Source of the DNA: Candidatus Scalindua sp.
Lineage (GTDB): Bacteria; Planctomycetota; Brocadiia; Brocadiales; Scalinduaceae
DNA length: 26,250 nucleotides
Assembly: GCA_024654465.1 (NCBI GenBank)
Contig: JANLHC010000135.1
Span: 1 to 26,250 of the forward strand
Reading direction: 5' to 3'
The position numbers and the translations under genes were made by a program. Under the pieces are notes generated by a model, which saw nothing but the letters and a program-made list of their open reading frames with translations, did no database searches and was not told the DNA's origin. Below are positions 6,335 to 22,946 of this stretch, piece by piece (positions within the stretch are counted from its first letter, which is position 1; each line of letters opens with the position of its first letter).

Positions 6335-6665
6335 TTTGACCTTCTTTGATTTGTATTTTTGTAGTATGTATTAGGCTGATAGTGAAAAGTCTATCCATAC
6401 AAAATATAGTTGTCAAGTATATTTATATAAAAAACTAGTACTAATTATTATAGAAAGTCCTGTGATTTTAGAGACTTATACATTATTGCCAGTCATGTGC
6501 AACCTCATTCCACAGTTCTTTTTGCCTGTACATACATCGAAAAGACACGCATTAGCAACGCTTTGCACTCTGGTTTCAAATACCTTCCGTTTGGAATGCA
6601 TATATATTATTGCTAACGATAATCATCTATACCAGTTTACAACGTAAATTGTCATAAGATTGTTA

Positions 6666-6694
6666 TTGACATATCGATATAAGTTTGTTATTTT
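6666..6694 (+). promoter_or_regulatory. Candidate sigma70-type promoter for the ACP operon, with a palindrome in the spacer
   Basis: TTGACA (6666-6671), a 17-nt spacer, then TATTTT (6689-6694). The perfect 10-bp palindrome ATATCGATAT lies at 6671-6680. Confidence 0.3.
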
Positions 6695-6855: not shown

Positions 6856-7110
6856 TTGCCTGTAGAGAACTTAGAGAAAGATATTACTGCTATTGTAGCG
6901 GAAGTAACCGAGCTGGATGAGAATGAAATATGGGAGAAAAGAGATGCCGATTTTTTTAAGGATTTGGAGATTGATTCCTTATTAGCACTGGAAATTCTTG
7001 CCCTGATAGAAAAGAAATTCAAGGTTCAAATTCCGGAAGAAAAACTCGTAGACATCACATCATTGAATGCAACAATTGAAATGACCAGGTCTACACTTGA
7101 AGGAAAATAG
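6856..7110 (+). CDS. Acyl carrier protein (dedicated, cluster-associated)
   Basis: Phosphopantetheine-attachment motif DLEIDSLLALEIL and the 84-aa size fit an ACP. The TTG start is preceded by GGGAGG 8 nt upstream, with an in-frame TAG at 6841. Confidence 0.85.
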   Translation: MPVENLEKDITAIVAEVTELDENEIWEKRDADFFKDLEIDSLLALEILALIEKKFKVQIPEEKLVDITSLNATIEMTRSTLEGK

Positions 7111-7208: not shown

Positions 7209-7658
7209 ATGTTGAACTTTGAGGAAGTAAGAGAGCTGGTTCCTCAAAAATACCCTTTCTTATTTATTGATAAAGTTATTGAGCTTCAAAAAGAGAGCAG
7301 GATTGTTTGTCTAAAAAACATCTCTGGTAATGAGCCTTTCTTCGCGGGACACTTCCCTGATTTTGCCATAATGCCTGGAGTTCTCATTGTAGAAGCTCTG
7401 GCGCAAGCCTCGATTATCCTCTTCAAAAAGAGCTTTGACACTGAGCAGTATAAAGATAAAGTCTTTTTGTTGGCTTCCGCAAACGTGCGTTTTTCAAAAC
7501 CTGTTTTTCCTGGCGACCAGCTAACTCTGGAAATTGATATAGAAAAGGTCATTTCCAGTGCGGCAATAGTTAAGGGAGTGGCCAAAGTGGGAGGCAAAGT
7601 TGTAACAAAAGCAACTTTGAGCTTTGGCGTTGCAAACAAAGATTCATTAACCGGATGA
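7209..7658 (+). CDS. fabZ: 3-hydroxyacyl-ACP dehydratase, FabZ type
   Basis: PFLFIDKV..., the hot-dog fold catalytic His in FFAGHFP, PGVLIVEALAQ with the catalytic Glu, and a length of 149 aa. Confidence 0.9.
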   Translation: MLNFEEVRELVPQKYPFLFIDKVIELQKESRIVCLKNISGNEPFFAGHFPDFAIMPGVLIVEALAQASIILFKKSFDTEQYKDKVFLLASANVRFSKPVFPGDQLTLEIDIEKVISSAAIVKGVAKVGGKVVTKATLSFGVANKDSLTG

Positions 7659-7687
7659 AAGTATTAGTATTTGTAAAGTAAACAACC

Positions 7688-8908
7688 ATGGATAAAAGAA
7701 TTGTAATTACCGGCCTGGGTGTAATTTCCCCTATAGGAAACCAAAAAGATCTGTTTTGGGATGCATTAATTTCCGGCACATCCGGTGTGTCTGAGGTCAC
7801 ATCATTTGACACCTCTCCTTTTAAAGTACATAAAGGCTGTTTCGTTAAAGATTTCAATTATGACGATTATACAAAAAATGGTTCTAGTCGAGAGATTGGC
7901 AAAGGTTCTCAATTTGCCATAGCAGCGGCAAAACTTGCTATCGAAGACTCTAATATTGGTTTAAATAATATTGATCCCGAAAGAGCTGGTGTTTCAATTG
8001 GAACAACTGCAGGTGAAATACAGATTCTGGAAAAGGTAAACTATATAAGACATGAAAAGGGAGAAGATAGTGTAGATCCTGGCCTGTTTCTTATGCATCC
8101 TTGCGTTAATATGCCGTCTAACATATCTATTGAATTTGGTTTTAAAGGTCCAAGCACAATAATACCTACTGCCTGTGCCGCCGGTAACTATGCTATCGGT
8201 TATGCATGTGATCTGATAAAATTGGGAAGAGCAGACATAATGCTTGCCGGTGGATCAGATCCGTTTTCTAAAGTTGCTTTTGTTGGTTTTAGTCGATTAA
8301 ATGCCATCGCGCCGGACATTTGCCAACCTTTTGATAAAAACAGAAAAGGCCTGTTAGTTGGAGAAGGTGCAGGGATGCTGGTATTAGAATCCCTGGAAGG
8401 TGCACTAGCCAGAAACGCAAATATCTATGCAGAAATCCTGGGTTACGGCCTGAGCTGTGACGGTTATCACATAACAATTCCGCATCCGGAAGGAAATGGC
8501 GTTACTTCGGCAATGGAAAAGGCCTTGATAAATGCCAAAATCAGACCCGAAGATGTTCAGTATATGAGTGCGCATGGTACAGGAACAGTCGCCAATGACA
8601 AAGCTGAAACTATATCAATAAAGAAGGTCTTTGGTAAACATGCAAAGAATCTGGCCATAAGCTCTATAAAATCAATGCTTGGCCACACAATGGGAGCTGC
8701 CAGCGCTATTGAGGCGATAGCGTGTGCTTTGGCTATTAAAGAGGGCGTTGTACCGCCAACGATAAACTACGAAACAAAAGACCCTGAGTGTGATTTGGAT
8801 TTTGTTCCAAATGTTAAACGTGAAATGCGGGTTGATATTGCCATGAATAATGCATATGCTTTTGGCGGTAACAATAGTAGTCTCATACTGAAAAAGTTTA
8901 CAGATTAA
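7688..8908 (+). CDS. fabF: Beta-ketoacyl-ACP synthase II (KAS II / FabF type), catalytically complete
   Basis: Cys163 lies in [12 protein letters not shown]. The two His residues lie in SAHGTGT and [14 protein letters not shown]. The C-terminal [15 protein letters not shown] is also typical. Confidence 0.92.
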
Positions 8909-9001
8909 AAGTTAAAATAGTGATGCCTTGGTATTCCGACTGAAAATACCGCTAGCATTTCTCAGCTTAAAAAATAATTTCTATAGAGGTAGATAGTATA
9001 T

Positions 9002-10237
9002 ATGAATAATCGCCTGGTTATAACTGGAATAAGTGTCTTATCGTCAATCGGTGTGAACAAGGATGAGTTCTGGATCAATTTGACAAATGGCGCTTCCGGA
9101 ATAAAAGATATCACGCTATTTGATGTCTCTAAATATAACAGCAAAAAAGCGGGTGAGATAACAGATTTTGATGCAAAAGAATACTTAGGGAAAAAAGGTA
9201 TTCGCCACATAGATAGAACATCGTTATTGGTATCCTCTGCGGCAAAACTTGCCATGGAAGATGCTAATATCACTCATGAAACTTATGGTGCCGACGAACT
9301 GGGGATAGTAATCGGGTCAACGTATGGCAGTATTGACAGTATCAGCTCATTCGACTTGGAAGGATTAAAGGAAGGACCAACTTTCGTAAATCCCATGGAA
9401 TTTCCAAATACTGTCCTAAATGCACCGGCAAGCAGGGTATCTATTTTCTGTAATGCGACAGGCTTAAATTCTACAATATCTACAGGTACTGCCAGTGGAT
9501 TGGACGCTATCATTTACGCTTCTGATTTCCTAAGGCTAGGCAGAGGAAAAGCGGTGGTAGCCGGCGGAGTTCATGGTTTAACTCCCGATGTTTTCTGGGG
9601 AGCTTACCGCTCAGGAATATTGTCAGGAAGCCGTAACGGTGATATTGAAATTTCCGCACCATTTGATAAAAGACGTAATGGCTTTATTATTGGCGAAGCT
9701 GCCGCATTACTTGTTATTGAAAGGCTCGAAGACGCATTGGAAAGAAACGCGAAAATCTATGCCGAGATAAAAGGATACGGATGTACGTTTAACCCTGACA
9801 AGGTTTCTCGTGACCACATTGACACCACCCAAGGCGTAAGATGTATCTCTATCGCAATGAAAGATGCCGGGATTAATTCCGAAGATATTTCTTATATCTC
9901 CGCATGCGCAAATTCCAGTATGACCGGCGACATAATGGAAGCTAGAATCATTAAAGACTATTTTGGTGATAACGCTGACAAGGTACCTGTGAGTGCAATA
10001 AAGTCAATGACAGGAGAATGCCTTGATGCATCAGGGTCATTACAGTGTGTTGCCGGTGTATTGGCAATCAATAATGGTATTATCCCTCCGACAATAAACT
10101 ATCAGGAAAAAGATGAAGAGTGTAATCTGGATTGCGTACCTAACAATAGCAGAGAATCAGAGGTAAACAATGTCCTTATCAACTCCTTTTCCGATACAGG
10201 CAACATTTCAGCGGTAATCATATCAAAATATTCATAA
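9002..10237 (+). CDS. KAS-fold paralogue lacking the Cys-His-His triad (KS-beta / chain-length-factor-like)
   Basis: It aligns along its full length to the upstream FabF. The equivalent positions read STGT163ASGLDA (Cys->Thr, codon 9488-9490), SAC302ANSSMTGD (His->Cys) and KSMTGE339CLDASG (His->Glu). Confidence 0.85.
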   Translation: MNNRLVITGISVLSSIGVNKDEFWINLTNGASGIKDITLFDVSKYNSKKAGEITDFDAKEYLGKKGIRHIDRTSLLVSSAAKLAMEDANITHETYGADELGIVIGSTYGSIDSISSFDLEGLKEGPTFVNPMEFPNTVLNAPASRVSIFCNATGLNSTISTGTASGLDAIIYASDFLRLGRGKAVVAGGVHGLTPDVFWGAYRSGILSGSRNGDIEISAPFDKRRNGFIIGEAAALLVIERLEDALERNAKIYAEIKGYGCTFNPDKVSRDHIDTTQGVRCISIAMKDAGINSEDISYISACANSSMTGDIMEARIIKDYFGDNADKVPVSAIKSMTGECLDASGSLQCVAGVLAINNGIIPPTINYQEKDEECNLDCVPNNSRESEVNNVLINSFSDTGNISAVIISKYS

Positions 10238-10256: not shown

Positions 10257-11690
10257 ATGAGTAATTTCTCTCTGAACAAATCTGAACTAAAATCCAAGTA
10301 TGATGTAATTGTACTGGGAGCCGGAATTGCCGGTCTAATCTGCGGGACTTTTCTGGCAAAACATGGAAAGAAAGTACTGATTATTGAACAACATAGTATT
10401 CCCGGAGGTTATTGTACCTCTTTCAAGAGAAAAGGCTTTATTTTTGATGCCGCAGTTCATCATATTGGTGGGTGTGGAAAATGGAGTGTTGTTGGCAGGT
10501 GCCTTAAAGAACTTGACATAAATATTAATTTCCTGCAACTTGACCCCATGGATAGCATACATTTCCCTTCATTTTCCATTGATGTACCTGCCGAGATCGA
10601 CGATTATGTGGATCTGTTAATGAAACGTTTTCCCTCAGAAAGGGAACAACTATCACTTTTTTTTAAGGAGTTTATCAGACTATATCGGGCTACATTCAGC
10701 ACTGAAAGACATGAGATGCTCATCAAATACCAGAACCTTACCTACAAGGAAATGTTGGATAAATTTTTTACAGATGAGCAGCTTAAAATGACACTTTCTG
10801 CACAGTGGGGATACATAGGTTCACCTCCTCACGAAGTTTCGGCTATTGGCATGTGTCAAATGCTGATAAATTATCTGAAAGATGGGGCTTATTTCCCAGT
10901 CGGCGGTACCCAGAATTTCTCAGATACAATCACTCAAAAATTTATTGACTATGGCGGACACATTATGCTATCTTCTAGCGCAGAGAAGGTACTAACAGAG
11001 GATAGTATTATAAAAGGAGTTACAACACAAAAAGGAGAGAAGATCACTGCTGATACTTTTGTTTCAAACATTGATCCCAAACAAACTTTTTTCTGTTTAA
11101 TAGATAAAAATACCGTTGATGACTCATTTCTTAGCAAGATTGAGAATATGAAGGAGAGTGTTTCATTCTTTTTACTATACCTTGGTCTTGATGACAAAAT
11201 AGACTTAAAAGGCCTGAAAAGAGGTTTTTACCATACATCAAAGAACTTAAATTTTTCCGGCAGTGACTGGTTTTATATTTCCGTTCCTACGGAAGTTGAT
11301 TCAAGCCTGGCACCTGATAACAAACAAATAATTTCTGTTGTTGCCTCGTCAAGAGACGATTACGACAACATAGACGATTGGGCCGCGTATAAAAATAAAA
11401 TGAAAGAACATACAATAAATTATCTGAAAAATTATGTACCAGACATTCAGAACCATATTGAAGTAATTGACGCCGCCACACCGAAGACGCTACATCGCTA
11501 CACACTTAACTCAAAAGGCGCGGCTTATGGTTGGGCTGTTACTGTAGACCAGACAGGATCAAATAGACTTCCGCACACAACACCTTTCAAAAATCTTTTT
11601 CTGGCCGGGCACTGGACTAATCCTGGGCCGGGGATATGTGCGGTTGTATCCTCTGGTTGGAGAGTCGCTAATATGATTTTAAATAATTAG
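10257..11690 (+). CDS. FAD-dependent oxidoreductase of the phytoene desaturase (CrtI/CrtD) family
   Basis: N-terminal dinucleotide fold YDVIVLGAGIAGLICGTFLAKHGKKVLIIEQHSIPGGYC. C-terminal LFLAGHWTNPGPGI. The 477-aa length fits the family. Confidence 0.85.
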   Translation: MSNFSLNKSELKSKYDVIVLGAGIAGLICGTFLAKHGKKVLIIEQHSIPGGYCTSFKRKGFIFDAAVHHIGGCGKWSVVGRCLKELDININFLQLDPMDSIHFPSFSIDVPAEIDDYVDLLMKRFPSEREQLSLFFKEFIRLYRATFSTERHEMLIKYQNLTYKEMLDKFFTDEQLKMTLSAQWGYIGSPPHEVSAIGMCQMLINYLKDGAYFPVGGTQNFSDTITQKFIDYGGHIMLSSSAEKVLTEDSIIKGVTTQKGEKITADTFVSNIDPKQTFFCLIDKNTVDDSFLSKIENMKESVSFFLLYLGLDDKIDLKGLKRGFYHTSKNLNFSGSDWFYISVPTEVDSSLAPDNKQIISVVASSRDDYDNIDDWAAYKNKMKEHTINYLKNYVPDIQNHIEVIDAATPKTLHRYTLNSKGAAYGWAVTVDQTGSNRLPHTTPFKNLFLAGHWTNPGPGICAVVSSGWRVANMILNN

Positions 11691-11702
11691 GAGGATTAAG
11701 AA

Positions 11703-13166
11703 ATGAAGAAAATGATGCTTATCAATCCACATCCCCCTGGGCGACATGGCGAGGAGAGCATATCTGTCATAGTTCAAATGCCGTTAAATCTGGCATACAT
11801 CGCGGCCCTTACACCGGGTGACTGGGAGTTCGACGTAATCGATGAAAATTTGGAACTAGCCCTTGATGATAACGGAGAAATTACATTTGAGCCTGTGGAT
11901 TTAGTTTGTATCACTTCTGTTACCTATCAAGTGCCAAGAGCTTACCAAATAGCCGAGATCTGCAGAAAAAAAGGTATGACCGTGATCATGGGTGGTATAC
12001 ACGCTTCGGTAGTGCCAGAGGAAGCCTCAAAATATGTGGATGCTATTTTTATCGGAGAGGCAGAGACTCTCTGGCCACAAGTCATTAAAGATTTTGAAAA
12101 TGGCGAACTCAAAAAAGAGTACAATGGCGGCCTGCCGGGCCTGTCAGAGATGAAGCATGTATTTCCAGATAGGGAACTTCTGAAGAAGAAGTATGATTAC
12201 AAGTTTTCATCTATTGTTACAACAAAAGGTTGTCCGAATTACTGCGATTTCTGCAGCGTACCAACCTTTCAGGGAAAAAAATACCGGGAAAGACCGTATG
12301 AAGACGTCCTGGACGAAATGGAAGCTACGGACTACAAGGGGCTCATGTTTGCCGAAGATAATTTTTATGGCCATAGCAAGAACTCTGCTAACAGGGCAAA
12401 GGCTCTCTTTCGTGGCATGATAGATAGGGGCATTAAAAAGGACTGGCTTGGGTTTACTGCACTCAACATATCAAAGGACGCAGAGGTACTTGATCTTATG
12501 GCAAAGAGTGGAAATTTTGGATTTCTCTGCGGCATAGAATCAACAAATGAAGCAGTTCTGGAGAAGATGAACAAAACGACTAATTTAAGAATTGGTGCCG
12601 ATAATTATTATGACAGCGTTCAAAAAATCCACGATCACGGCCTTGTTGTCTGGGGCTCTATAGTGTTGGGAGCAGATGGTGATGACAAAGATTCATTCAA
12701 AAGAATGACAGAATTTGTGCTGGAAAACAATATTGACGTTCTTACATTTGGCATTAATTGTCCGTTTCCTAAGACAGCGCTTTATGATAGGCTTGATTCT
12801 GAAAAGAGGATTTTTAGAAAGAATTACCCTGAAGACTGGAAATATTATGATACTGCACATGTGGTTCACAGACTTGTGGATATGAACCTTGAGGAGTTCA
12901 TAGACGGCATGCAATATATGTATGATCATCTGTATGCTGGAGACAACCTGAGAATGCGATTCAGGAAATCACTTCAAACTATTGGCAGTACGACTCATGG
13001 TAAACGTAACGCCATGTTTGGATTCAGGGTTGGCTCTGACTGGATACAGGTATTTGAGCAGGTACTGGAAAATCTTCGTCTACTATACGATTCAGGGGAT
13101 TATTACAAAGACTGGTACAAGAGCAGTGCCGTTACTGTTCCTTCCGATAAGGGAGTAACTGTTTAA
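11703..13166 (+). CDS. Cobalamin-binding-domain (class B) radical SAM enzyme
   Basis: Radical SAM motif C177PNYC181DFC184 (12231-12254). It is preceded by an N-terminal Rossmann-like B12-binding-type domain (DLVCITSVT...VIMGGIHAS). AGGAGG lies upstream, 12 nt after the desaturase stop. Confidence 0.85.
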   Translation: MKKMMLINPHPPGRHGEESISVIVQMPLNLAYIAALTPGDWEFDVIDENLELALDDNGEITFEPVDLVCITSVTYQVPRAYQIAEICRKKGMTVIMGGIHASVVPEEASKYVDAIFIGEAETLWPQVIKDFENGELKKEYNGGLPGLSEMKHVFPDRELLKKKYDYKFSSIVTTKGCPNYCDFCSVPTFQGKKYRERPYEDVLDEMEATDYKGLMFAEDNFYGHSKNSANRAKALFRGMIDRGIKKDWLGFTALNISKDAEVLDLMAKSGNFGFLCGIESTNEAVLEKMNKTTNLRIGADNYYDSVQKIHDHGLVVWGSIVLGADGDDKDSFKRMTEFVLENNIDVLTFGINCPFPKTALYDRLDSEKRIFRKNYPEDWKYYDTAHVVHRLVDMNLEEFIDGMQYMYDHLYAGDNLRMRFRKSLQTIGSTTHGKRNAMFGFRVGSDWIQVFEQVLENLRLLYDSGDYYKDWYKSSAVTVPSDKGVTV

Positions 13167-13184: not shown

Positions 13185-13240
13185 AAAGGCGCAGAAAAAT
13201 ATATCAGGCAAGAACATAATATTTTTCTGTGCCTTTTTGT
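13185..13240 (+). terminator. Rho-independent terminator closing the ACP-to-radical-SAM operon
   Basis: An 18-nt stem with one mismatch (aaaggcGcagaaaaatat / atatttttctgTgccttt) is followed by a T-run (ccttttt). Confidence 0.75.
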
Positions 13241-13556: not shown

Positions 13557-14048
13557 ATGTTAAATATTTATAGAAAACTTATCATTTCTATGGTTGCTTT
13601 GTTTGTGTTTGTTGTATTAAGCTTTGCAAATAGCACAATTAATAAGGTACAAGCAGTAGATTATATTAAAAAACCATCAGAAACCCATCATCAGTCATTT
13701 GAACCATATGAAAATCCAATCGTTATTCCTGATCCAAAACCCAGAGGCACTGTAGTAAGAGTTAAAGAGATAACGACATATGATGTCGTTGTTGATGAAG
13801 CAAAGATAGCAGCAAATAACGTTACCATGGCTGATCTCGAACTTATAGAGGTGAAGGACAAGAAGGATATCAATTTCCACCAGGTAGACTGTTATTTCTA
13901 TGCAAAGGTAAAACAGACTCAGACAAAATCAACAAACTATGGAGCAAGCACACGATGGAGAGAAGGAGAGCAATTCTGGCTATCAGACGGTGGGAAATAT
14001 GTTGAGTGGGAGCCATGGTCAGAATGGTATTCAGGTAATAAGTGGTAA
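13557..14048 (+). CDS. Secreted hypothetical protein with a Trp-rich C-terminus
   Basis: RBS GGAAGGTGG. Signal-peptide-like N-terminus (LIISMVALFVFVVLSFANS). C-terminus WREGEQFWLSDGGKYVEWEPWSEWYSGNKW. No family recognised. Confidence 0.6.
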   Translation: MLNIYRKLIISMVALFVFVVLSFANSTINKVQAVDYIKKPSETHHQSFEPYENPIVIPDPKPRGTVVRVKEITTYDVVVDEAKIAANNVTMADLELIEVKDKKDINFHQVDCYFYAKVKQTQTKSTNYGASTRWREGEQFWLSDGGKYVEWEPWSEWYSGNKW

Positions 14049-14317
14049 TGTGTATCGTTGGGAGATTTATGTTCTGATAATACCAAATAGGAGAATCCAA
14101 TTTGCGGTTTCAGAAGGAGTATGTTGGGCTACCACCTGTCCTAAGCAAAATATCAGGGCAGATACAATCATTAAAGTAGAAGCACACATTCAAAAAACCG
14201 TTAAGTGGCACATATAGACCGATCTCTGAATGCTACACTCTTTCATTTTCTGAATAGATGTTAAAGCGATTAGACGTCCTGATGATTTTCAACTTCTTTT
14301 CGTTTTGTTTTAAACAA

Positions 14318-14950
14318 TTAGAAAGATTCGTCTTTTTTTGCAAGCAGACTGATCTTTATGTCTGTATACATTAGAGACATCACCCTATTCATCCCCCTAT
14401 GTGACATCAAGTTAAACTCTTCGAGTTTAACTTCCAAATCTCCATTTAGCCACACCATCTTCTTATGTATTTCGTCTTCTTCTGTTAAATCCGGTTCGCC
14501 ATTTCCCTCTATAAAAATTGTCTCGGTCTTCTTTATATCATCTTCAGCAAATTGTAAAGTATAGTCCTTCCAACTATTGAGAACGACAATTTTATAAAGT
14601 TTATCTTCATAAAAAAAGAATGTGAAGCGGCCGCCGGAAACGTTTCTGGAAAGCGTGGTAACCTTATTGTTTACCATCGGATCATATTCAAATTTGTCTG
14701 GAGCAGGAAATTGTTTCTGTACCTCACTTACGCTTACTCCAAACTCAAGCGGTTGTACCATTGTTTTTGTATCGGGGGTGTATTCGTCCTCAGGTGCGTT
14801 ACCTAGCATTGCTCTAAGAGCCTGAGCCTCTTTATAGAGTTCTTCATCTGCGATTACCTTTTTATCCGTAGCAACCTTCTCAGTTGTAGTACAGTTTTGT
14901 ATAATTACCAATGTAGAAATTAACAACAATACCAGCCGGATATTTTTCAT
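14318..14950 (-). CDS. Hypothetical exported protein, possible lipoprotein
   Basis: N-terminus MKNIRLVLLLISTLVIIQNC, with a hydrophobic signal followed by Cys; the lipobox is non-canonical. No family recognised. Confidence 0.55.
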   Translation of the reverse strand: MKNIRLVLLLISTLVIIQNCTTTEKVATDKKVIADEELYKEAQALRAMLGNAPEDEYTPDTKTMVQPLEFGVSVSEVQKQFPAPDKFEYDPMVNNKVTTLSRNVSGGRFTFFFYEDKLYKIVVLNSWKDYTLQFAEDDIKKTETIFIEGNGEPDLTEEDEIHKKMVWLNGDLEVKLEEFNLMSHRGMNRVMSLMYTDIKISLLAKKDESF

Positions 14951-15009: not shown

Positions 15010-16002
15010 TCAAGGCACTTCTATATTATCAAAGATGTTTTGTATGACTTTTTCTGCGGTCATTTCTTCTGCTTCTGCTTCATAGGTTATGATAACTCTA
15101 TGTCGCAGCACATCCATTCCTATAGACTTTACATCTTGTGGAGTGACATAACCCCTGCCTTTGAGAAAAGCATATGCCTTTGACGCAATCGCCAGGTAAA
15201 TTGTTGCCCTGGGCGAAGCACCATATTCAATGAATTCACCTAAATTAAGGCCGTATTTCTGAGGATCTCTGGTGGCAATTACCAAGTCCACTATGTAGTC
15301 CTTTATCTTATCATCAATGTAAATCTGGTCGACTACCGCACGTAGGCGCTTAATGTCATCTGGTTTTAATACAGAATCCACTTTTATGTTGGTATCTGTC
15401 AATGCCATTCTGTCTAAAATCTCACGTTCTTCGCTTTTACTGGGATAATCAACATTAAGCTTTAACATGAATCTGTCAACCTGTGCTTCAGGCAAAGGAT
15501 AAGTACCTTCCTGCTCAATTGGGTTTTGTGTAGCAAGTACCAGGAAAGGATCTTCGAGTTTAAATGTCTCACTGCCTATCGTTACCTGCTTCTCCTGCAT
15601 AGCCTCTAAAAGCGCGCTCTGAACCTTTGCAGGTGCCCTGTTAATTTCATCAGCAAGTATAATATTTGAGAATATCGGTCCTTTTTTTGTAGTAAACTCA
15701 CCAGAACGAGGATTGTAGATAAGGGTACCTATCAGGTCTGCCGGCAGGAGATCAGGTGTAAATTGAAGCCTTTGGTACTTCACCTGAATTGCTTTTGCCA
15801 GTGTCATAACAGATAGGGTCTTTGCTAATCCGGGAACACCTTCCAGGAGGATATGGCCATTCGCCAGAATACCAATCAGCAATCTTTCTATAAGATGTTT
15901 TTGTCCTACAATTACTTTCCCCATCTCATTGCTTAGGTTAGAAAGAACACCGCTCTCTTCTTTAATAATATCCGTTATATTTTTAATGTCTTTTGATTCC
16001 AT
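15010..16002 (-). CDS. MoxR-family AAA+ ATPase (AAA_3)
   Basis: GHILLEGVPGLAKT (Walker A), ILADEINRAPAKVQSALLEAMQEKQVT (Walker B/sensor) and ATQNPIEQEGTYPLPEAQVDRF. Confidence 0.92.
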   Translation of the reverse strand: MESKDIKNITDIIKEESGVLSNLSNEMGKVIVGQKHLIERLLIGILANGHILLEGVPGLAKTLSVMTLAKAIQVKYQRLQFTPDLLPADLIGTLIYNPRSGEFTTKKGPIFSNIILADEINRAPAKVQSALLEAMQEKQVTIGSETFKLEDPFLVLATQNPIEQEGTYPLPEAQVDRFMLKLNVDYPSKSEEREILDRMALTDTNIKVDSVLKPDDIKRLRAVVDQIYIDDKIKDYIVDLVIATRDPQKYGLNLGEFIEYGASPRATIYLAIASKAYAFLKGRGYVTPQDVKSIGMDVLRHRVIITYEAEAEEMTAEKVIQNIFDNIEVP

Positions 16003-16070
16003 ATTAGTCTACACTTGTTTGATGGTTATCGGAAGTAAAAGTCAAAGTTAGATAGTCTTATGAACTTTTG

Positions 16071-18374
16071 TTATTGAATTTCTCTTACTACGCATGCTTC
16101 TATCAGATCTTCAATCTTATCTTTATTCATCAGGTAGACAAAGTTTGTCTCTGAACCGGTAACATAATAATCATTACCGGCTTCTTTGCCAACCAGCAAT
16201 GAGACCTCACCATCGTCAAAACTAATGGTAATATTGAACTGTGGGTTATCTAATCCATATTTTGATAAATCCTTGTTTGAATACTGTACAATAGACTCAC
16301 CCATCAGTAACTTCATTGAAGAAATGATTCGATCTGCTAAATTCCCACTCAATAGCATGATTTCCGGTTTGATCATTTGCCACACATGTTCTTCATTTTT
16401 CTGAAAAAGCAGCTCATTTTCAGGATGTATTATTTTAATAGACTTCGCATTTGTGGAATCGAAGCTAAACAGTGTCCTTGTGACAAGCTCAATACTGTAA
16501 TCCCTGACGTCAGTCCACCCTACCTGAAAAACCATATCCTGACCATCCACCTTAGCATAGTAGTTAGATTTATCCTTTTCCGGTTCAACTTTATTTCCTA
16601 TCAGGAGCGTTTTTGTTTTCAATTCCTTTGGCTTTACCAAGTCACTCTTCTCACTAATTACTTCATCGCTGTGCGCAGCCATTCCAGATGCTTCGTATGT
16701 TACAGATGCTTTTAACAGAGGCTTGTCAAGCCCATAATCAGCAAGATTTTCTGCTGAAAGAGTCACTATCTTATCAGCCAACAAAAATGATAGATTCCAT
16801 ACCACTTGATTGATGGAGTCCAATTCTGCTTCCATTGTTACAGGACTTACCATATTCCACTTCGGCCTGCGCATAGTAGAATCTTCCGTCGTCTCACATA
16901 TGAGTGTTTTACCATCACGCTCTATGACTATTTTTTGAGCTGTTTCCTTGGGAAATTCCATGACTAATTTATCTCTGAATGCGAGATAACCAGCCTTAGC
17001 AATTTCATAAAAATTTTCCGTTGGAACGGTATATACAGCATCTTCTCCGTCTCGCCTTACATAGCACAGTCCACCATTTTCGTCTGCATTACCTATCAAA
17101 AATTTCACCGTTTCACCTTCGCCGATTCTTCTGAATACTGAAACTTCGATAGGTGAGTCTGCTAATCCGTACTTCTCAAAGTTATCACCACTATCGTCAA
17201 CATACTGCTGTATCTGCAAATCCTTAATTTTTTCCACGAATTCTCTTACCGTATCTCTATCAGCCAGAATTTCTTTTGGCGATTTAATCATCCAGTCATA
17301 TTGCGCTGTCTTTTCCATAACAAGGTGTGCATCAGAAGATTTCAAATCAATTTTTTCTATCCCGTAAGTACCTATTGCATCAAACCTCAATAGCTGTTTG
17401 TCCCGCAAATCGTTCAGTTCCAAATCTAGATCGCGAAGAATAATATCGTGTACTAGAAAAATAGAACTTTCGCCGTCAAGCTTTGCGTAGATCTTTTCAT
17501 CCAGACGGTGACCCAAACGGAGAGTTTGCACATTGTCTGTAGTACCTATACTGATAGTAAATACGGGCTTATCCAGACCGTAGTTGATAATATCTTCTTT
17601 GCTATCAGACACAAAATCCTCTTTTGCAATCTTCAGGTTTTTTAATTCATTGAGAATATCCTGGATTCTTTCAGTATCAGCACGGTCTGAAAGTGGTTGT
17701 GTTATCCACCAGAGTTGCTCCGCCTTAGAACACACCACAGGCTCATTCTCGCCGCTCTCAAGTCTCAATCTTTCTACAGAATGTTTATCATACTCAAATG
17801 CCCATTTATTTCTTAAATCATTGATTTCTTTGTTTACTTTCTCCAGAAATTTAGCGTCAACGACAGAAACATTCTTGTCGTCCCCCACAGTTATATATAC
17901 AGTGTCTTGTCCGGCTGCCAGCCTATCCCCGATACTAACGGTATACTTGGTAACATCTCCGGCAGTTCCACCAACCATTGAACCCTTTTTAAGCCAGAGG
18001 CTAACAACAAGATCTGGGGTTTCAAGGCCATATTCTTTCAAGCTGAAGTTTGCTGTTTCACTTTCTTTAACAACACCGATTTTTCTCAGAAACTCAAATT
18101 GTGCGAGAATTTCTGCCACCTCAGCTTTGTCAGCTCTCAGTTGCAGAGGCTCCACCATCCTCCAGTTCTCATTATCGGTACTTTCAAGGACGATATTAGT
18201 ATCCCCCTTTTTCATTTCAATTTTATTAATCTGGCCTGGTTTGTAATCCGGCAATACCATTTGCTGCCTCTGTACCCATACATCTGTCCTGTATTGTCTT
18301 TTGTCATACAGAAATATGTATGCCGCACCAATGCCTGCAATTATTAAAAGTATTATAGTCGTTCTAAATTTCAT
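16071..18374 (-). CDS. DUF4340-type protein with five tandem domain repeats and an N-terminal membrane anchor
   Basis: The likely start is MKFRTTIILLIIAGIGAAYIF (ATG at 18374, which avoids overlap with the upstream gene). The motif pair W.(M/I)..P...AD......(I/V) followed by YGL(D/E).P occurs five times, with YGL at residues 135/285/422/567/726 of the 787-aa track ORF. Position after a GldG-like gene is typical for DUF4340. Confidence 0.75.
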   Translation of the reverse strand: MKFRTTIILLIIAGIGAAYIFLYDKRQYRTDVWVQRQQMVLPDYKPGQINKIEMKKGDTNIVLESTDNENWRMVEPLQLRADKAEVAEILAQFEFLRKIGVVKESETANFSLKEYGLETPDLVVSLWLKKGSMVGGTAGDVTKYTVSIGDRLAAGQDTVYITVGDDKNVSVVDAKFLEKVNKEINDLRNKWAFEYDKHSVERLRLESGENEPVVCSKAEQLWWITQPLSDRADTERIQDILNELKNLKIAKEDFVSDSKEDIINYGLDKPVFTISIGTTDNVQTLRLGHRLDEKIYAKLDGESSIFLVHDIILRDLDLELNDLRDKQLLRFDAIGTYGIEKIDLKSSDAHLVMEKTAQYDWMIKSPKEILADRDTVREFVEKIKDLQIQQYVDDSGDNFEKYGLADSPIEVSVFRRIGEGETVKFLIGNADENGGLCYVRRDGEDAVYTVPTENFYEIAKAGYLAFRDKLVMEFPKETAQKIVIERDGKTLICETTEDSTMRRPKWNMVSPVTMEAELDSINQVVWNLSFLLADKIVTLSAENLADYGLDKPLLKASVTYEASGMAAHSDEVISEKSDLVKPKELKTKTLLIGNKVEPEKDKSNYYAKVDGQDMVFQVGWTDVRDYSIELVTRTLFSFDSTNAKSIKIIHPENELLFQKNEEHVWQMIKPEIMLLSGNLADRIISSMKLLMGESIVQYSNKDLSKYGLDNPQFNITISFDDGEVSLLVGKEAGNDYYVTGSETNFVYLMNKDKIEDLIEACVVREIQ

Positions 18375-18399
18375 AGTTATATAAAGTCTCCGTTTATTA

Positions 18400-19986
18400 T
18401 TATCTTCTTCTTCTCCACCAGACGTAGCCGCCAATTATTATTCCGATAGAAGGTAGCCCTGCAATAGACAGCCAGAATATTGCAGCTAGTTGTCCAGGCC
18501 TGACAATCGCCCTCCTGACGTCAGGAGCTTTAGCAGATATCCCTAACTCCTTTTCCCTCCGAGCCAGCCAGCTTATAGCATTTAAGACAAGGTCCTGATT
18601 TCCCGGGTTATCAGAAAATGCGTTTGCGGCAAAATCTGTATCACCGAAGACAACAACACGCGGCCCCTTTTTACCAATATCGGCAAAAGCCTGTGTAGCA
18701 TGTGGAGGTGCAGTAGGGTTTGGTTTCGCTTCTCTCAGCTCTGATACCGCTGCTAAGATAATTGGAGAACTAATATCTGAGTCTTCATCATATTTCGGTC
18801 TTTTTTTACCAACTATCTCAGTTTCACCCCAACTTTGGTCGGGAGCTTGTACAATCCCTGTAGCAACGAATGCCATTGTGTCGCTCAAAGGGGCAATGCT
18901 AAGTACGCTTGAACCATAAAAAACTGATGTCAGTTTTTTGATGTCTGCTGTTATCTCATGGTCTAAGTATTTCTTATCACTTATATAAACCTCAACAACC
19001 GTCTGCATACCAAAAAGCGGCATATTCACTTTGTTGTATACAACGGCATCATCCCTGACAACTATACCGTATTCTCCAAGCAATGCACTTAAACCAGGTG
19101 ATTTATTGACGCCTACGGCAGGTTCAAGCATTACGAGTAACTTGCCGTTTTTAAGTTCACCTTTATCGTTTATCAGTCTTGCCGAAGTTCCAACATAGTC
19201 TCGAATATAGTTTGTTTCTTGTGTTGAGAAACTTTTTGTTGGACCGGCAATGAAGAGTATGTCGCAATTTTCAGGAACTCGCTTCTGTTGTAATAAATCA
19301 AGTGGCAGAACGTTGTAATTAGCACGTTTGATAGCGCTTGCCAATTTTCCTAAGCCCGCACGTTCAAAATCCTCGTAATCTCTCTCTCCATGTCCTTTGG
19401 TAAAGTAAACGTTTGTCTGTTTTTCCCGTGTTACATTTAAAACTGCTGACGTAAAGATCTCTTCGCCCTTGAATTTGAAAGGAAATTCTCTTTCGATTAC
19501 CTCTGATTGTTGTACATGTTTACTTTTATCTCCACAAGTGAAGATTATAGAATTGATTTGCAATTGCTCCAGATCCATCTTGAGCTTCTCTGCCAGCTCA
19601 GTTATTTTAGTACGATCGGTCAACGGGTTCAGGAGAGTAACCGTTATCTTGTCTGATAGATACTTATATTCTTCAAGTATATCTATGACCTGCCCGTAAA
19701 AACGGTAATCCTGTTTTTTTACCAGAAGTGAGGTAATAAAAACAGGTTGATCAAGATTTTTCAGAATTTTCTTTGTTTTAGCACTTAGTGAGTATTTTCC
19801 AGACGCAGTAAAGTCACAACGGTAGTAATGTCTATCGTTAATATAGCTGACAAAGACAAAGATCGCGATAGCGATAAGTATCATAAAAATCACATTAGCC
19901 CCGATCAGGGTTTTTTGTTTTTTTATATTTTGTGGATTCTCTGGTGTTATTACTTCTTTATTATTCAATGACTTTCCTACCTCCAT
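18400..19986 (-). CDS. GldG-like auxiliary component of an ABC-2 transport system
   Basis: N- and C-terminal TM anchors flank a large periplasmic domain, ending ...GGYVWWRRRR. The gene overlaps the upstream permease gene by 10 nt. The order ATPase-permease-GldG is conserved. Confidence 0.75.
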   Translation of the reverse strand: MEVGKSLNNKEVITPENPQNIKKQKTLIGANVIFMILIAIAIFVFVSYINDRHYYRCDFTASGKYSLSAKTKKILKNLDQPVFITSLLVKKQDYRFYGQVIDILEEYKYLSDKITVTLLNPLTDRTKITELAEKLKMDLEQLQINSIIFTCGDKSKHVQQSEVIEREFPFKFKGEEIFTSAVLNVTREKQTNVYFTKGHGERDYEDFERAGLGKLASAIKRANYNVLPLDLLQQKRVPENCDILFIAGPTKSFSTQETNYIRDYVGTSARLINDKGELKNGKLLVMLEPAVGVNKSPGLSALLGEYGIVVRDDAVVYNKVNMPLFGMQTVVEVYISDKKYLDHEITADIKKLTSVFYGSSVLSIAPLSDTMAFVATGIVQAPDQSWGETEIVGKKRPKYDEDSDISSPIILAAVSELREAKPNPTAPPHATQAFADIGKKGPRVVVFGDTDFAANAFSDNPGNQDLVLNAISWLARREKELGISAKAPDVRRAIVRPGQLAAIFWLSIAGLPSIGIIIGGYVWWRRRR

Positions 19987-20687
19987 TTTCTACTCTCAAC
20001 ATTTCGTACTGTTATAAACAAAAGTAATGCCGTAAAACTCAGATAGTAAATTACATCCCTGGTATCCACAATGCCTTTTGTAAAAGATGACCAATGGTCA
20101 TAAGTCCCAATATACCGTAGTGATTCGTAAAACCAACCATCACCGTACGTACTTAGAAAACCAACTACCCATAGAATTATTAATGCAACTATTCCGATCA
20201 CGGCAGCAACAACTTGATTCTTAGTTAACGATGACACAAGCAAACCGATAGATACAAATAGTCCACCCATAAGTATTAGTCCAATATAACTGGAAAAAAT
20301 TGGCCCGAAGTCCGGATTCCCGAAAATACTCAGAAATAATACATATATCCATGTCGGAAGGATCATTACAGTATACAGGCTTAAGGCGGCAAGAAATTTA
20401 CCAAATACTACATCAAAATCTGTTACCGGAGAAGTCATGAGTGTTTCCATCGTCCCGGACTTTGACTCATCTGCAAAAAGCTTCATGGTGATCACGGGCG
20501 TAAGCAACAGAAGGAAAAATTGAATTGAGTCCAGGCTTCCCTTAAGGGAAGCTTCCTGCCAGAACTGCAGATTGCCTGCAAAAAAGAAACCGGATGCAAT
20601 AAGGAATACAGAAATCACAACGTATGCAATTGGTGAATAAAAGTAGGACAAGATTTCTCGTTGAAATATAGTAGTTACGTTACGCAC
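19977..20687 (-). CDS. ABC-2 family permease (GldF-like)
   Basis: 236 aa with about 6 hydrophobic helices. It overlaps the ATPase gene by 8 nt. Confidence 0.8.
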   Translation of the reverse strand: MRNVTTIFQREILSYFYSPIAYVVISVFLIASGFFFAGNLQFWQEASLKGSLDSIQFFLLLLTPVITMKLFADESKSGTMETLMTSPVTDFDVVFGKFLAALSLYTVMILPTWIYVLFLSIFGNPDFGPIFSSYIGLILMGGLFVSIGLLVSSLTKNQVVAAVIGIVALIILWVVGFLSTYGDGWFYESLRYIGTYDHWSSFTKGIVDTRDVIYYLSFTALLLFITVRNVESRKWR

Positions 20688-21633
20688 TGGCTGTTTCTTC
20701 CTCCGTTTCCTTGGTAGTGACCTGATGAAAAATTTCCTCTAAGGTAATCGTCTGTCGTTTCATTTCTCGCAGTATATAATTATCTTTTACAATGCAATTA
20801 AAAACATCTTCCCTTATATCTTTTTCACCATTTCCATTTATATAAAACTCATTTGCGTCGTCCTTTTTTCTATATGTCACAGATTGGACGGTGTCAACGC
20901 GGGACAAGCTGTTTTTTATTTTTTCTCCATCTCCCTTTATCTCTAAAACCAGGTTTGAACCCGTTTTCAACTGTCTCATGAGATTTGCAGGTGTATCCAT
21001 TGCCACTATCTTACCCTTATTAATTATCATAACTCTATCACAGACCATTTCAACTTCAGGAAGAATATGTGTTGACAGCAATACTGTATGCTTCTGTCCC
21101 AGGCCCTTAATAACACCCCTGATCTGCCGGATCTGATTAGGATCAAGCCCAATTGTAGGCTCGTCGAGAATTAAAACTTTCGGATCATGGACTAACGTAT
21201 CCGCAAGGCCCACTCTCTGCTTATACCCTTTTGACAAAGTGCCTATGATCTGATTTTGCACATCTGTTATTCCTGTCATTTCGAGACAATATTCTATCTT
21301 TTTCCTTCTTTCTCTTCTGGGTATATTTTTTAGTTTTGCGCGAAACATCAGATACTCTTTCGCTCTCATGTCCAGATAAAGAGGGACATTCTCAGGTAAA
21401 TATCCAATCTCCTGGCGTACGTTTAGCGAATCGGTAAATACGTCATAACCGGCTACAGTTGCAGAACCGGCAGTCGCAGGCATAAAGCAGGTTAATATTC
21501 GCATAGTAGTCGTTTTACCGGCCCCATTTGGGCCAAGCAGACCGACTATTTCGTTTTCTTCCACATCGAAAGAAATATTGTCCACTGCGTTGACATTTAC
21601 ATATCGCTTCACTAAATTCTTGACTTTAATCAT
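20680..21633 (-). CDS. ABC transporter ATP-binding protein (GldA/CcmA-like)
   Basis: Walker A GPNGAGKTTT, signature LSKGYKQRVGLA, Walker B LILDEPTIGLD and the H-loop STHIL. Confidence 0.93.
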   Translation of the reverse strand: MIKVKNLVKRYVNVNAVDNISFDVEENEIVGLLGPNGAGKTTTMRILTCFMPATAGSATVAGYDVFTDSLNVRQEIGYLPENVPLYLDMRAKEYLMFRAKLKNIPRRERRKKIEYCLEMTGITDVQNQIIGTLSKGYKQRVGLADTLVHDPKVLILDEPTIGLDPNQIRQIRGVIKGLGQKHTVLLSTHILPEVEMVCDRVMIINKGKIVAMDTPANLMRQLKTGSNLVLEIKGDGEKIKNSLSRVDTVQSVTYRKKDDANEFYINGNGEKDIREDVFNCIVKDNYILREMKRQTITLEEIFHQVTTKETEEETASA

Positions 21634-22202: not shown

Positions 22203-22610
22203 ATGGGTTTAGCTGGTTCCGCGTTCAAAGATGTTGGAAAAGAATTTCCGAAAGGTACTATATTATTTAAAGAAGGTGAAGAAGGTAAAGAAATGTTCCT
22301 GATTAATTCAGGTGAAGTTAAGCTGAGCAGGAAAACTCCGCATGGAGATGTGATTTTAGCAAAATTAGGCTTTGGAGAATTCTTCGGAGAAATGTCCGTC
22401 ATTACAAACAAACCAAGGACTGTTTCGGCTGAAACAGTAACTGATTGTCGACTGAATATCATAACAAAGGATATCTTGGAAACATTAGTGGCTGGTAAGC
22501 CTTTAGTGGCATTGAGCATTCTAAAAAAGCTGATGTTTAGACTGGAACATGCGTACGACCTTATTGAAGATCTTTACGTCAAACACATTAAACAAGATAA
22601 GGAAAAGTAG
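22203..22610 (+). CDS. Stand-alone cyclic-nucleotide-binding (CAP/Crp effector) domain protein, no output domain
   Basis: FKEGEEGKEMFLINSGEVKL......G..ILAKLGFGEFFGEMSVITNKPRTVSAETVTDC is the beta-roll cNMP-binding motif. At 135 aa there is no room for an HTH domain. RBS GGAGGGG. Confidence 0.85.
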   Translation: MGLAGSAFKDVGKEFPKGTILFKEGEEGKEMFLINSGEVKLSRKTPHGDVILAKLGFGEFFGEMSVITNKPRTVSAETVTDCRLNIITKDILETLVAGKPLVALSILKKLMFRLEHAYDLIEDLYVKHIKQDKEK

Positions 22611-22622
22611 CATATCTCAAAA

Positions 22623-22898: not shown

Positions 22899-22946
22899 GC
22901 CTTGTGCCATCCCGGTATAAGGCCTTTTTATTGCATCCAGATTGTT

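Follow-up and report, generated by a model that had tools for sequence, protein, structure and literature searches.

In ladderanes, cyclobutane rings are fused into chains, and how cells assemble these lipids has long been an open question in lipid biochemistry. The consensus candidate for their synthesis is "Cluster I" of Kuenenia stuttgartiensis, kuste3603-3608 (Rattray 2009; Javidpour 2016; Dietl 2023; Granatino 2026). This cluster is universal among anammox bacteria, where its expression is high, and specialists agree in giving it a central role in ladderane synthesis. [quoted passage not shown] This heterodimer and amxFabZ favor short C6-C8 substrates and not long chains; for amxFabZ, a characterized orthologue was found to prefer substrates no longer than C8 (Dietl 2023). 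Two further enzymes of this leading candidate operon are uncharacterized: a CrtI-family flavoprotein (PDH) and a radical SAM protein with an N-terminal B12-binding-type domain (rSAM).

KS/CLF heterodimers also occur in the non-aromatic type II polyketide synthases (PKSs) for ishigamide (Iga11/12) and cispentacin (AmcB-H), and for cispentacin such KS/CLF-type machinery makes a five-membered carbocycle. These systems differ from Cluster I in their products, polyenes or a cyclopentane as opposed to cyclobutanes, and neither our matches nor the consulted parts of that literature indicate a PDH or B12-rSAM partner for them.

The Scalindua operon and its candidate expression signals

We analyzed a stretch of 26,250 nt from a Candidatus Scalindua assembly (contig JANLHC010000135.1; here, the window). 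Its best genome matches are Scalindua MAGs (94 to 99%), which identifies the host as a Brocadiales anammox bacterium. Six genes on one strand, separated by gaps of 12 to 98 nt, follow the order amxACP-amxFabZ-amxFabF2-amxFabFmut-PDH-rSAM (Table 1), and the genes that flank them are unrelated to the operon. This close same-strand succession of ACP, FabZ, KS, inactive KS, PDH, and B12 rSAM is the one that defines Cluster I: the six genes and their order are shared by Kuenenia, again with an inactive KS partner after the KS, and all six are collinear in Scalindua, Kuenenia, Candidatus Anammoxibacter, and other Brocadiales loci. The window genes are almost certainly the Scalindua orthologue of kuste3603-3608. 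Orthology, gene order, cotranscription signals, and catalytic motifs are what the present analysis establishes; the PDH-rSAM operon itself adds nothing beyond the literature since 2009.

Table 1. Features of the operon and its surroundings, in window coordinates
Feature	Position	Strand	Evidence or detail
Candidate promoter of the operon	6656..6694	+	Conserved block AAGATTGTTATTGACAT...AAGTTTGTTATTTT
amxACP, anammox-specific acyl carrier protein	6856..7110	+	PP-binding, 5e-14
amxFabZ, 3-hydroxyacyl-ACP dehydratase variant	7209..7658	+	FabA-like domain, 2e-27
amxFabF2, active ketosynthase	7688..8908	+	Ketoacyl-synt N- and C-terminal domains; triad Cys163/His296/His333 intact
amxFabFmut, inactive chain-length-factor-like KS partner	9002..10237	+	Triad positions Thr/Cys/Glu
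PDH, CrtI-family FAD-dependent oxidoreductase, kuste3607 orthologue	10257..11690	+	Amino_oxidase, 3e-22; NAD_binding_8
AGGAGG ribosome-binding site of the rSAM gene	11689..11694	+	Read from the sequence
rSAM with N-terminal B12-binding-type domain, kuste3608 orthologue	11703..13166	+	Pfam B12-binding, Radical_SAM, DUF4070
CPNYCDFC (CxxxCxxC, radical SAM [4Fe-4S] cluster motif)	12231..12254	+	Residues 177-184; C177, C181, C184
Probable intrinsic terminator of the operon	13185..13238	+	18-bp stem, 16-nt loop, then T-run

The amxACP gene begins with TTG preceded by GGGAGG, both of which are conserved across Scalindua, and its start region matches the published cloning primer for Scalindua brodae amxACP; the protein scored under every NCBIfam ACP cut-off. 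For amxFabZ, the score against the FabZ model NF000582 was 151.8 bits (cut-off, 113). The original prediction had described the next two genes as a KS pair. Both are indeed of the KS family, and the first is 73 to 74% identical to the Kuenenia KS; the alignment columns of the triad, however, read C/H/H in the first and T/C/E in the second, so that the second is an inactive, CLF-like protein. The Thr at the catalytic Cys position has been reported for Scalindua (Granatino 2026), in contrast to the Val of Kuenenia amxFabFmut. With an active KS adjoining a homologue that lacks the triad, and with a discrete ACP, the module is therefore closer to a type II PKS than to a duplicated FabF. Weak NCBIfam matches to the cispentacin proteins AmcE and AmcF were also found among the window proteins. 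The earlier view that this is not canonical FAS II was right, as were the gene calls.

The last two genes follow closely, with 19 nt between the stop of the second KS gene and the start of PDH and 12 nt between PDH and rSAM, exactly the coordinates first described. The AGGAGG had been placed in the latter gap. It is present and ends 8 nt ahead of the rSAM ATG, but it overlaps the PDH stop codon (TAG, 11688-11690), whose AG serves as its first two bases, and it therefore does not lie wholly within the gap.

Upstream of amxACP, a consensus scan located a block of the form TTGACA-17 nt-TATTTT, with TG ahead of the second hexamer (10 of 12 matches). The block is kept in all eight Scalindua sequences that extend to this position, in contrast to the divergent intergenic DNA around it (alignment A2), a pattern that makes it a candidate promoter. 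Downstream of rSAM, a hairpin with a predicted RNA folding energy of -23.3 kcal/mol (z = -3.6; 0 of 200 shuffles as stable) probably ends the operon as an intrinsic terminator; a simple terminator scan missed it because its loop limit was 8 nt, and RNA folding recovered it. Rfam and tRNA screening revealed no riboswitch, other RNA element, or tRNA in the 520-nt leader or across the entire window. The ABC-2, GldG-like, DUF4340, and MoxR genes farther downstream (15010-21633) were considered as members of the system because a similar set lies upstream of one non-anammox cassette (L069); their synteny is restricted to part of Scalindua, and we therefore rejected their membership.

The PDH and rSAM proteins

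The PDH (477 aa) and rSAM (487 aa) reading frames are not due to chance: public Scalindua assemblies contain homologues that reach E = 0 and 100% identity. A Scalindua MAG protein matches PDH at 100% identity, compared with 59 to 60% for the Kuenenia orthologues; for rSAM, identity is 99% to Scalindua S225 and 78 to 80% to Kuenenia proteins.

PDH resembles CrtI of Pantoea (4DGK, its best PDB sequence match, 1.8e-23) and the CrtISO/CrtD relatives in its FAD-binding GxGxxG motif, its Amino_oxidase fold, and its full-length alignment. Unlike CrtI, it sits in an ACP/KS operon and not in a carotenoid operon. Its score against TIGR02734 (crtI_fam), 160.6 bits, fell below the cut-off of 238.1 and was nearly tied with the score against the carotenoid isomerase model (160.3 bits). 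Kuenenia kuste3607 fails to replace CrtI, with no lycopene formed in a crtI-deleted pathway.

rSAM scored above the cut-off for the B12-binding domain (PF02310; 37.8 bits versus 32.1) and matched Radical_SAM at 3.8e-15. A 32-sequence family alignment (A1) shows that, of its seven cysteines, none is invariant apart from the three in the CxxxCxxC motif, and we therefore conclude that rSAM has no SPASM or twitch auxiliary cluster. Both parts of the earlier description, an N-terminal B12-binding-type domain and a single CPNYCDFC motif with no SPASM-type Cys clusters, are borne out by these data. The cluster motif and the N-terminal Rossmann-type B12-binding domain are the sequence hallmarks of class-B radical SAM proteins. 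No sequence motif in rSAM settles cobalamin binding.

Classification of rSAM by HMM, which had been proposed as a check, was carried out against the class-B NCBIfam models HpnJ, HpnR, BchE, PhpK, MCR Gln methylase, and TIGR04072. Scores of 70.7 to 83.8 bits, compared to cut-offs of 360 to 650, left rSAM below every characterized family, methylases and BchE included, and we rejected filing it under any of them. This holds also for TIGR04072 (rSAM_ladder_B12, the NCBI "lipid biosynthesis B12-binding/radical SAM protein"), likewise a radical SAM family with a B12 domain, whose short name points to ladderane candidate genes; at 82.4 bits versus a cut-off of 360, it is a different, paralogous family.

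In a PDB sequence search, only the radical SAM core aligned, with the methylase QCMT/MgmA (9CCB) as the best match (4.6e-14). The AlphaFold model of rSAM (pLDDT, 90.4) alternates strands and helices over residues 2-143, and its fold neighbors are AprD4, MgmA/QCMT, TokK, TsrM, CysS, and OxsB. The top structural match was the radical SAM 1,2-diol dehydratase AprD4 (PDB 6FD2; Foldseek E = 8e-20, TM 0.65 to 0.72), which shares the B12-like N-terminal domain; identity, however, is only 17 to 18%, the NCBIfam AprD4 model gave 35.5 bits versus a cut-off of 500, and AprD4 binds no cobalamin and acts on an aminoglycoside. Since the neighbors, 12 to 19% identical, range from a dehydratase through methylases and methylthiotransferases to a ring-contraction enzyme, we made no call on function from the fold: the predicted structure shows neither whether rSAM uses cobalamin nor whether it forms C-C bonds.

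An analogy can be drawn with the class-B enzymes that are not methylases. BchE, the anaerobic Mg-protoporphyrin cyclase, is a cobalamin radical SAM enzyme that forms a C-C bond, and OxsB, one of the fold matches, carries out a ring contraction; in both, as in rSAM, an N-terminal Rossmann B12-type domain precedes the radical SAM barrel. C-C bond or ring chemistry is plausible for rSAM too. The differences are that the presumed substrate of rSAM is an ACP-bound lipid and not a tetrapyrrole or nucleoside, that its identity to the solved structures is 12 to 19%, that its match to the BchE model is weak (79.3 bits versus a cut-off of 481), and that its cobalamin binding is putative.

Distribution of the PDH-rSAM pair

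Anammox orthologues of rSAM form a clade of their own, with at least 70% identity. PDH lies directly upstream in 37 of 39 genes of this clade (36 within 300 nt; PDH is partial in L006), a pairing that is nearly invariant across anammox lineages. The pairing is also kept in the sister non-anammox clade. Two lone rSAM copies in Candidatus Anammoxibacter MAGs have no PDH and are not cluster members; the one inspected (L053) lies among unrelated genes. Nor is an anammox-wide rSAM paralogue (55 to 57% identity) a member, with no fab-like gene near it in nine loci; one inspected locus of this paralogue adjoins futalosine and Mla genes.

Collinear cassettes with 40 to 58% identity were found in high-GC MAGs not labeled as anammox (Acidobacteriota, Spirochaetales, and Planctomycetota) and in unlabeled metagenome contigs. 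A Myxococcales MAG (L047) and a second Planctomycetota locus (L044) have related cassettes that lack PDH. Some non-anammox cassettes carry KR, FabH, ECH, a polyketide cyclase, an FGE-sulfatase-like gene, or extra KS/CLF pairs. No cultured carrier was found among the top 120 relatives. These cassettes are the addition of the present work, and they qualify the published view that only ladderane producers have the cluster, and with it the exclusivity argument for its role.

Because bacteria not known to make ladderanes have collinear cassettes, the chemistry of the cassette may not be ladderane specific. The cassette could instead make another lipid or polyketide common to anammox and non-anammox bacteria, for example, a polyene-derived or modified short acyl unit, with the ladderane rings formed through other or additional anammox-specific genes. 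The collinear and the PDH-less cassettes fit such a product, as do reports of expressed "Ladderane-like" gene clusters in non-anammox phyla. We nevertheless regard this explanation as rather unlikely, given that the anammox orthologues form their own clade, that anammox bacteria universally carry the cluster and express it at high levels, and that no equally good alternative ladderane candidate is known.

Candidate chemistry of PDH and rSAM

On balance, we consider it probable that Cluster I, with its PDH and rSAM, plays its putative role in ladderane synthesis. The specific mechanism that we favor, a stepwise action of the two enzymes on short chains bound to amxACP, is offered tentatively, as one possibility. 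In this mechanism, PDH and rSAM would act on short enoyl or acyl intermediates tethered to amxACP and supplied by the KS/CLF-FabZ module. PDH would use its FAD to install or reposition C=C bonds, and the 5'-deoxyadenosyl radical of rSAM would abstract a hydrogen, leading to formation of a C-C (ring) bond and not to methyl transfer. If rSAM binds cobalamin, the cofactor might help to manage electrons or radicals, a role proposed for OxsB and BchE. The reactions would probably take place step by step as the chain grows and not on a finished long polyene. They would yield the cyclobutane (ladderane) end of the lipid, for later extension by canonical FAS II. Stepwise ring closure by rSAM has been proposed before (PMC13459092; Dietl 2023). 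Several observations count against this role and mechanism: expression of Cluster I in Escherichia coli yielded no polyunsaturated or ladderane fatty acids, non-anammox bacteria have the cassettes, the closest fold is that of an enzyme without cobalamin, and characterized class-B enzymes are mostly methyltransferases.

The oldest published proposal for the operon is the "type a" hypothesis (Rattray 2009 [PMC2649909]; Dietl 2023; review PMC13459092), in which PDH polyunsaturates a C16-C20 chain and an rSAM cascade folds the polyene into the ladderane. The original prediction, that a lipid tail is first desaturated and then altered by radical C-C chemistry, matches it. As the operon has been the main published ladderane candidate since 2009, this prediction independently rederived a known hypothesis, which is thus recoverable from the sequence alone. 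The CrtI-family membership of PDH and the tight coupling of PDH and rSAM are in keeping with it, but polyunsaturated fatty acids have been detected neither in anammox bacteria nor upon the E. coli expression, and the isotope labeling pattern is inconsistent with polyene rearrangement (Dietl 2023). The C6-C8 preference of amxFabZ and the KS/CLF heterodimer also argues against a long polyene, and a single polycyclization is energetically unfavorable and without data support according to the review (PMC13459092). We consider the "type a" hypothesis unlikely.

Lower still do we place a cobalamin-dependent C-methyltransferase function for rSAM, which together with PDH would give methyl-branched or cyclopropyl intermediates, either on a cyclopropane-rearrangement route to ladderanes or toward mid-chain methyl fatty acids. 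Most characterized class-B enzymes methylate unactivated carbons, the best PDB sequence match of rSAM is a methylase, and a cyclopropyl route has been proposed (Dietl 2023). [quoted passage not shown]"

Least probable, in our estimate, is the "type b" proposal that rSAM joins a linear C6-C8 part to a separately built ladderane part by radical C-C coupling, as lipid-tail-coupling rSAMs do: it is the proposal most easily reconciled with the short-chain preference and with the labeling of the linear part (Dietl 2023), and the rSAM Mss has been demonstrated to couple fatty acids tail to tail by a radical, but no pathway to a free ladderane unit is known, the early idea of amxFabFmut as the coupler has been refuted (Granatino 2026), and, since the omega end is made first in fatty-acid synthesis, the short-chain preference equally fits a ring end built on ACP.

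A broader and rather doubtful reading is that the ACP-DH-KS/CLF-PDH-rSAM cassette is not anammox specific and belongs, as a single branch, to a larger uncharacterized family of clusters that resemble type II PKSs. Such clusters would occur in Acidobacteriota, Spirochaetota, and non-anammox Planctomycetota, and relatives that lack PDH would occur in Myxococcota and Planctomycetota. The PDH-rSAM pair would then perform the same radical ring-forming or chain-remodeling chemistry on short ACP-bound enoyl units throughout, Cluster I and kuste2802-2805 would be two halves of one pathway, and the non-anammox carriers would make strained or cyclized lipids. If so, these carriers would provide an access to the chemistry, through heterologous expression or an eventual isolate, that is lacking for anammox bacteria.

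The kuste2802-2805-type module consists of rSAM-KS-CLF with KR, ECH, or MIase. In Scalindua, it is not adjacent to the Cluster I operon, whereas some non-anammox cassettes are contiguous with it. The contiguous cassettes suggest KR, ECH, MIase, a second rSAM, and a second KS/CLF pair as extra genes for reconstitution.

Identity and layout of the operon

Six genes of the window, all on the + strand, form a compact operon. A tblastn comparison of the six proteins with the fetched loci of relatives showed that the six genes and their order are shared by Scalindua, Kuenenia, Ca. Anammoxibacter, and other Brocadiales. The radical SAM protein (rSAM) shares 99% identity with a protein of 'Candidatus Brocadiaceae bacterium S225', 87-97% with proteins of other Scalindua and Scalinduaceae MAGs, and 78-80% with Kuenenia proteins; for the CrtI-family flavoprotein (PDH), a Scalindua MAG encodes an identical protein (100%). 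The window operon is Cluster I of the literature (kuste3603-3608), whose genes are described as amxACP, amxFabZ, amxFabF2, amxFabFmut, a phytoene-dehydrogenase homologue (PDH), and a cobalamin-dependent radical SAM enzyme. The first ketosynthase (KS) has an intact triad (Cys163/His296/His333), and the second carries Thr/Cys/Glu at the triad positions; of these changes, Thr in place of Cys has been published for Scalindua. The published cloning primers for amxACP and amxFabZ of Scalindua brodae fit the window genes at their start regions. Operon identity, gene organization, and catalytic motifs are all solid.

Coordinates of the operon genes, the adjacent signals, and the second modules in relatives' loci
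Feature	Sequence	Position	Strand	Remark
ACP	window	6856-7110	+	TTG start after GGGAGG
FabZ-like dehydratase	window	7209-7658	+	
Ketosynthase	window	7688-8908	+	
Second ketosynthase homologue	window	9002-10237	+	
PDH, CrtI-family flavoprotein	window	10257-11690	+	
Radical SAM protein	window	11703-13166	+	
Promoter-like conserved block	window	6656-6694		TTGACA-17-TATTTT at 6666-6694, upstream of operon
18-bp hairpin and T-run	window			3' of rSAM stop codon
Second module	L032	3986-11760	-	
Second module	L067	11481-17519		
Second module	L068	9001-15113		
Second module	L047	11323-16749		
Second module	L070	10465-16037		

The original prediction, made from the sequence alone, had singled out the coupled PDH-rSAM gene pair. 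This observation was confirmed, and its spacings were exact (19 nt from the second KS to PDH and 12 nt from PDH to rSAM). The AGGAGG that it had placed in the latter gap is present but does not lie wholly inside it (11689-11694), as the first two bases are the end of the PDH TAG stop codon. The TTG start of the ACP gene is conserved. The promoter-like block is preserved from one Scalindua lineage to the next, in contrast to the drifting intergenic DNA around it. The block holds two copies of TTGTTATT (GATTGTTATTGACA ... GTTTGTTATTTT), and one relative's locus (L003) shows an additional partial duplication immediately before the block. This repeat-bearing block could be an operator site. The genes flanking the operon are unrelated (ParA-like, ADH, MazF-like, MoxR, and the ABC-2/GldG-like/DUF4340 set).

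Classification of PDH and rSAM

Pfam confirmed the domains of PDH, with matches to Amino_oxidase and NAD_binding_8, and among solved structures CrtI (4DGK) is the best relative of this protein. Among NCBIfam models, PDH falls under the crtI_fam cut-off and scores equally with the carotenoid isomerase model. All 34 candidate genes have been expressed in E. coli, and in the lycopene assay of that study kuste3607, the PDH orthologue, was no substitute for CrtI (Javidpour et al. 2016).

Pfam also bore out the predicted B12-type domain of rSAM (B12-binding, above the gathering score); Radical_SAM and DUF4070 match as well. The CPNYCDFC motif occupies residues 177-184. Because its three cysteines are the only invariant ones across 32 aligned family members (51-79% identity), rSAM has no SPASM-type cluster, as had been predicted. 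The best NCBIfam scores of rSAM, 77-84 bits, were to HpnJ, PhpK, TIGR04072 ('rSAM_ladder_B12'), BchE, and HpnR. These are far below each cut-off (360-650), and membership in any of the five families was rejected; the family behind NCBI's 'ladder' model differs from that of the window rSAM. The closest fold neighbor of the rSAM AlphaFold model (pLDDT 90.4) is AprD4, followed by MgmA, TokK, TsrM, CysS, MiaB, and OxsB; identity to each of them is 12-19%. AprD4 has a Rossmann-like N-terminal domain yet does not bind cobalamin, so the cobalamin dependence of rSAM, though plausible, remains putative. A recent review of B12-rSAM enzymes files the 'Ladderane' group under 'other or unknown transformations'.

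In the 7209-10237 region, the FabZ-like and KS proteins gave sub-threshold NCBIfam matches to AmcE, a 'cyclizing decarboxylase' (93 bits; cut-off, 140), and AmcF (232 bits; cut-off, 325). AmcE and AmcF are enzymes of the cispentacin system, which is type II PKS-like and builds a five-membered carbocycle on an ACP.

Distribution of the gene pair, the cassette, and a second module

Within the anammox Cluster I rSAM clade (at least 70% identity to the window protein in a neighbor-joining tree of rSAM homologues), PDH lies ≤300 nt upstream of rSAM in 36 of 39 genes, and L006, with a partial PDH match, brings the count to 37. The pairing holds in these 37 but not in two isolated rSAM copies without PDH. 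Both are extra copies with 71-72% identity in Ca. Anammoxibacter MAGs (L027:10001-11443 and L053:10001-11422). One carrier, MAG OFTM214, also holds the full cluster (L029), and in the one locus inspected (L053) the isolated copy sits amid unrelated genes (GAF regulator and SCO1/SenC). A stand-alone B12-rSAM paralogue with 55-57% identity was found in Brocadiales and related Planctomycetota MAGs (L063:8001-9425, L036-L041, L045, and L050), the majority of them with a Cluster I-type rSAM as well. No fab-like genes were found near this paralogue in nine loci; at the single inspected locus, its neighbors are futalosine-pathway (menaquinone) genes on one side and an MlaDEF lipid-transport set on the other. 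In line with the original prediction, the rSAM orthologue itself does not occur independently of the fab-like genes.

MAGs and contigs with 57-72% GC, versus ∼39% for the window, make up the sister clade of the anammox rSAM; the MAGs are labeled Spirochaetales, Acidobacteriota, Planctomycetota (two), and Myxococcales. In this clade, four of the six loci (L042, L043, L046, and L048) hold all six genes collinear, with 40-58% identity to the window proteins and with an intact KS next to a triad-less partner. MAGs with this full set are labeled Spirochaetales, Acidobacteriota, and Planctomycetota (57-70% GC), and other cassettes are in unlabeled metagenome contigs. The remaining two sister loci, L047 (Myxococcales MAG) and L044 (second Planctomycetota locus), have cassettes without PDH. 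Among metagenome contigs retrieved through the protein index, L064-L066 carry a soil Acidobacteria cassette followed by SDR/KR and FabH, and in L069 the cassette is followed by KR. L067 and L070 are larger clusters in which a second rSAM, MIase, more KS/CLF pairs, ferredoxin, ECH, and KR follow the cassette, into which FGE-sulfatase-like or cyclase genes are inserted. No cultured organism appeared among the top 120 relatives. Cluster I has been described as 'encountered exclusively' in ladderane producers (Dietl 2023), such clusters have been called 'rare but not unique' (Rattray 2009; PMC2649909), and metagenomic surveys report 'ladderane' clusters from additional phyla. New here is the six-gene collinearity at the orthologue level outside anammox bacteria, and these cassettes qualify the published claim of exclusivity.

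Several loci also hold a second module with PPTase, a paralogous B12-rSAM, KS, and CLF-like genes, together with KR, ECH, MIase, or a dienoyl-reductase-like gene. In L032, from a Brocadiales-like lineage, a PPTase-rSAM-KS-CLF-dienoyl-reductase-like-KR-MIase set is convergent to Cluster I and matches the published kuste2802-2805 gene list. A module of this type stands alone in L068, and in the non-anammox clusters it is fused co-directionally to the cassette. Because the module joins or neighbors the cassette in several loci, Cluster I and the kuste2802-2805-type cluster appear to be pieces of a single ancestral gene cluster, and in anammox bacteria each of the two may supply half of one pathway. 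Both the link between these modules and the cassettes outside anammox bacteria are leads worth following.

Candidate mechanisms and other genes of the window

The operon is already known as the leading putative ladderane operon. Rattray et al. (2009; PMC2649909) noted phytoene-desaturase-like and radical SAM genes in FAS-like clusters and proposed that ladderanes arise by anaerobic desaturation and subsequent radical processing. The original prediction, in which a lipid tail is first polyunsaturated and rSAM then performs radical C-C chemistry, is the same scheme and thus re-derived the oldest published hypothesis. It was reasonable and is partly supported, but it is not new and is currently the least favored of the three mechanism classes under debate (polyene first, separate synthesis with ligation, and stepwise ring closure during elongation).

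amxACP, amxFabZ, and the KS/CLF heterodimer have been characterized, and the latter two prefer C6-C8 chains (Dietl et al. 2023; Granatino et al. 2026). As a working model, we consider a stepwise route most probable. The KS/CLF heterodimer, amxFabZ, and a reductase in trans would supply short enoyl-amxACP intermediates, whose unsaturation PDH would tune; rSAM would take hydrogen and close C-C bonds step by step, and canonical FAS II would then lengthen the linear part. The stepwise model fits the short-chain preferences, the normal labeling of the linear part, and the order of fatty-acid synthesis, which begins at the omega end.

As all authors stress, there is no experimental link between Cluster I and ladderanes. 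A product unrelated to ladderanes is a less likely reading. A polyene-first cascade, as originally predicted, is unlikely, since polyunsaturated fatty acids have not been seen in anammox bacteria and isotope labeling misfits rearrangement of a polyene (Dietl 2023). Cyclopropyl fatty acids have likewise not been seen, and labeling misfits a cyclopropane rearrangement too (Dietl 2023). According to Dietl 2023, the heterologous expression in E. coli produced no polyunsaturated fatty acids, and the radical SAM enzyme was not obtained. We regard it as quite unlikely that rSAM is a methylase: its best solved relative by sequence is QCMT/MgmA (9CCB; 4.6e-14), the methyl-coenzyme M reductase glutamine methylase, but this match is limited to the radical SAM core, and rSAM stands apart from known methylases. 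Radical ligation of two separately made parts, one of the debated classes, is also quite unlikely.

Apart from the operon, a MoxR ATPase and ABC-2 transporter/GldG-like/DUF4340 set lies ∼2 kb downstream (15010-21633, - strand), and a similar set is directly upstream of the non-anammox cassette in L069 (1-4134). The transporter set was rejected as part of the system; its synteny with the operon extends only within part of Scalindua, and the co-location is probably coincidental. Right after the hairpin, a probable terminator, at 13557-14950, are a 163-aa ORF (+ strand, hydrophobic N terminus) and a 210-aa ORF (- strand), both without a Pfam match and conserved only within part of Scalindua. The region 2285-2892 probably encodes a type II toxin-antitoxin pair, in which an 86-aa ORF runs into the start of a PemK/MazF-family toxin gene (2536-2892). 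Finally, the row at 22203-24973 encodes a cNMP-binding protein, a PqqD-like protein (22623-22898), a 292-aa protein without a Pfam match, and an 'uncharacterised nucleotidyltransferase' (PF14907), and in its arrangement resembles the accessory genes of peptide-maturation clusters.
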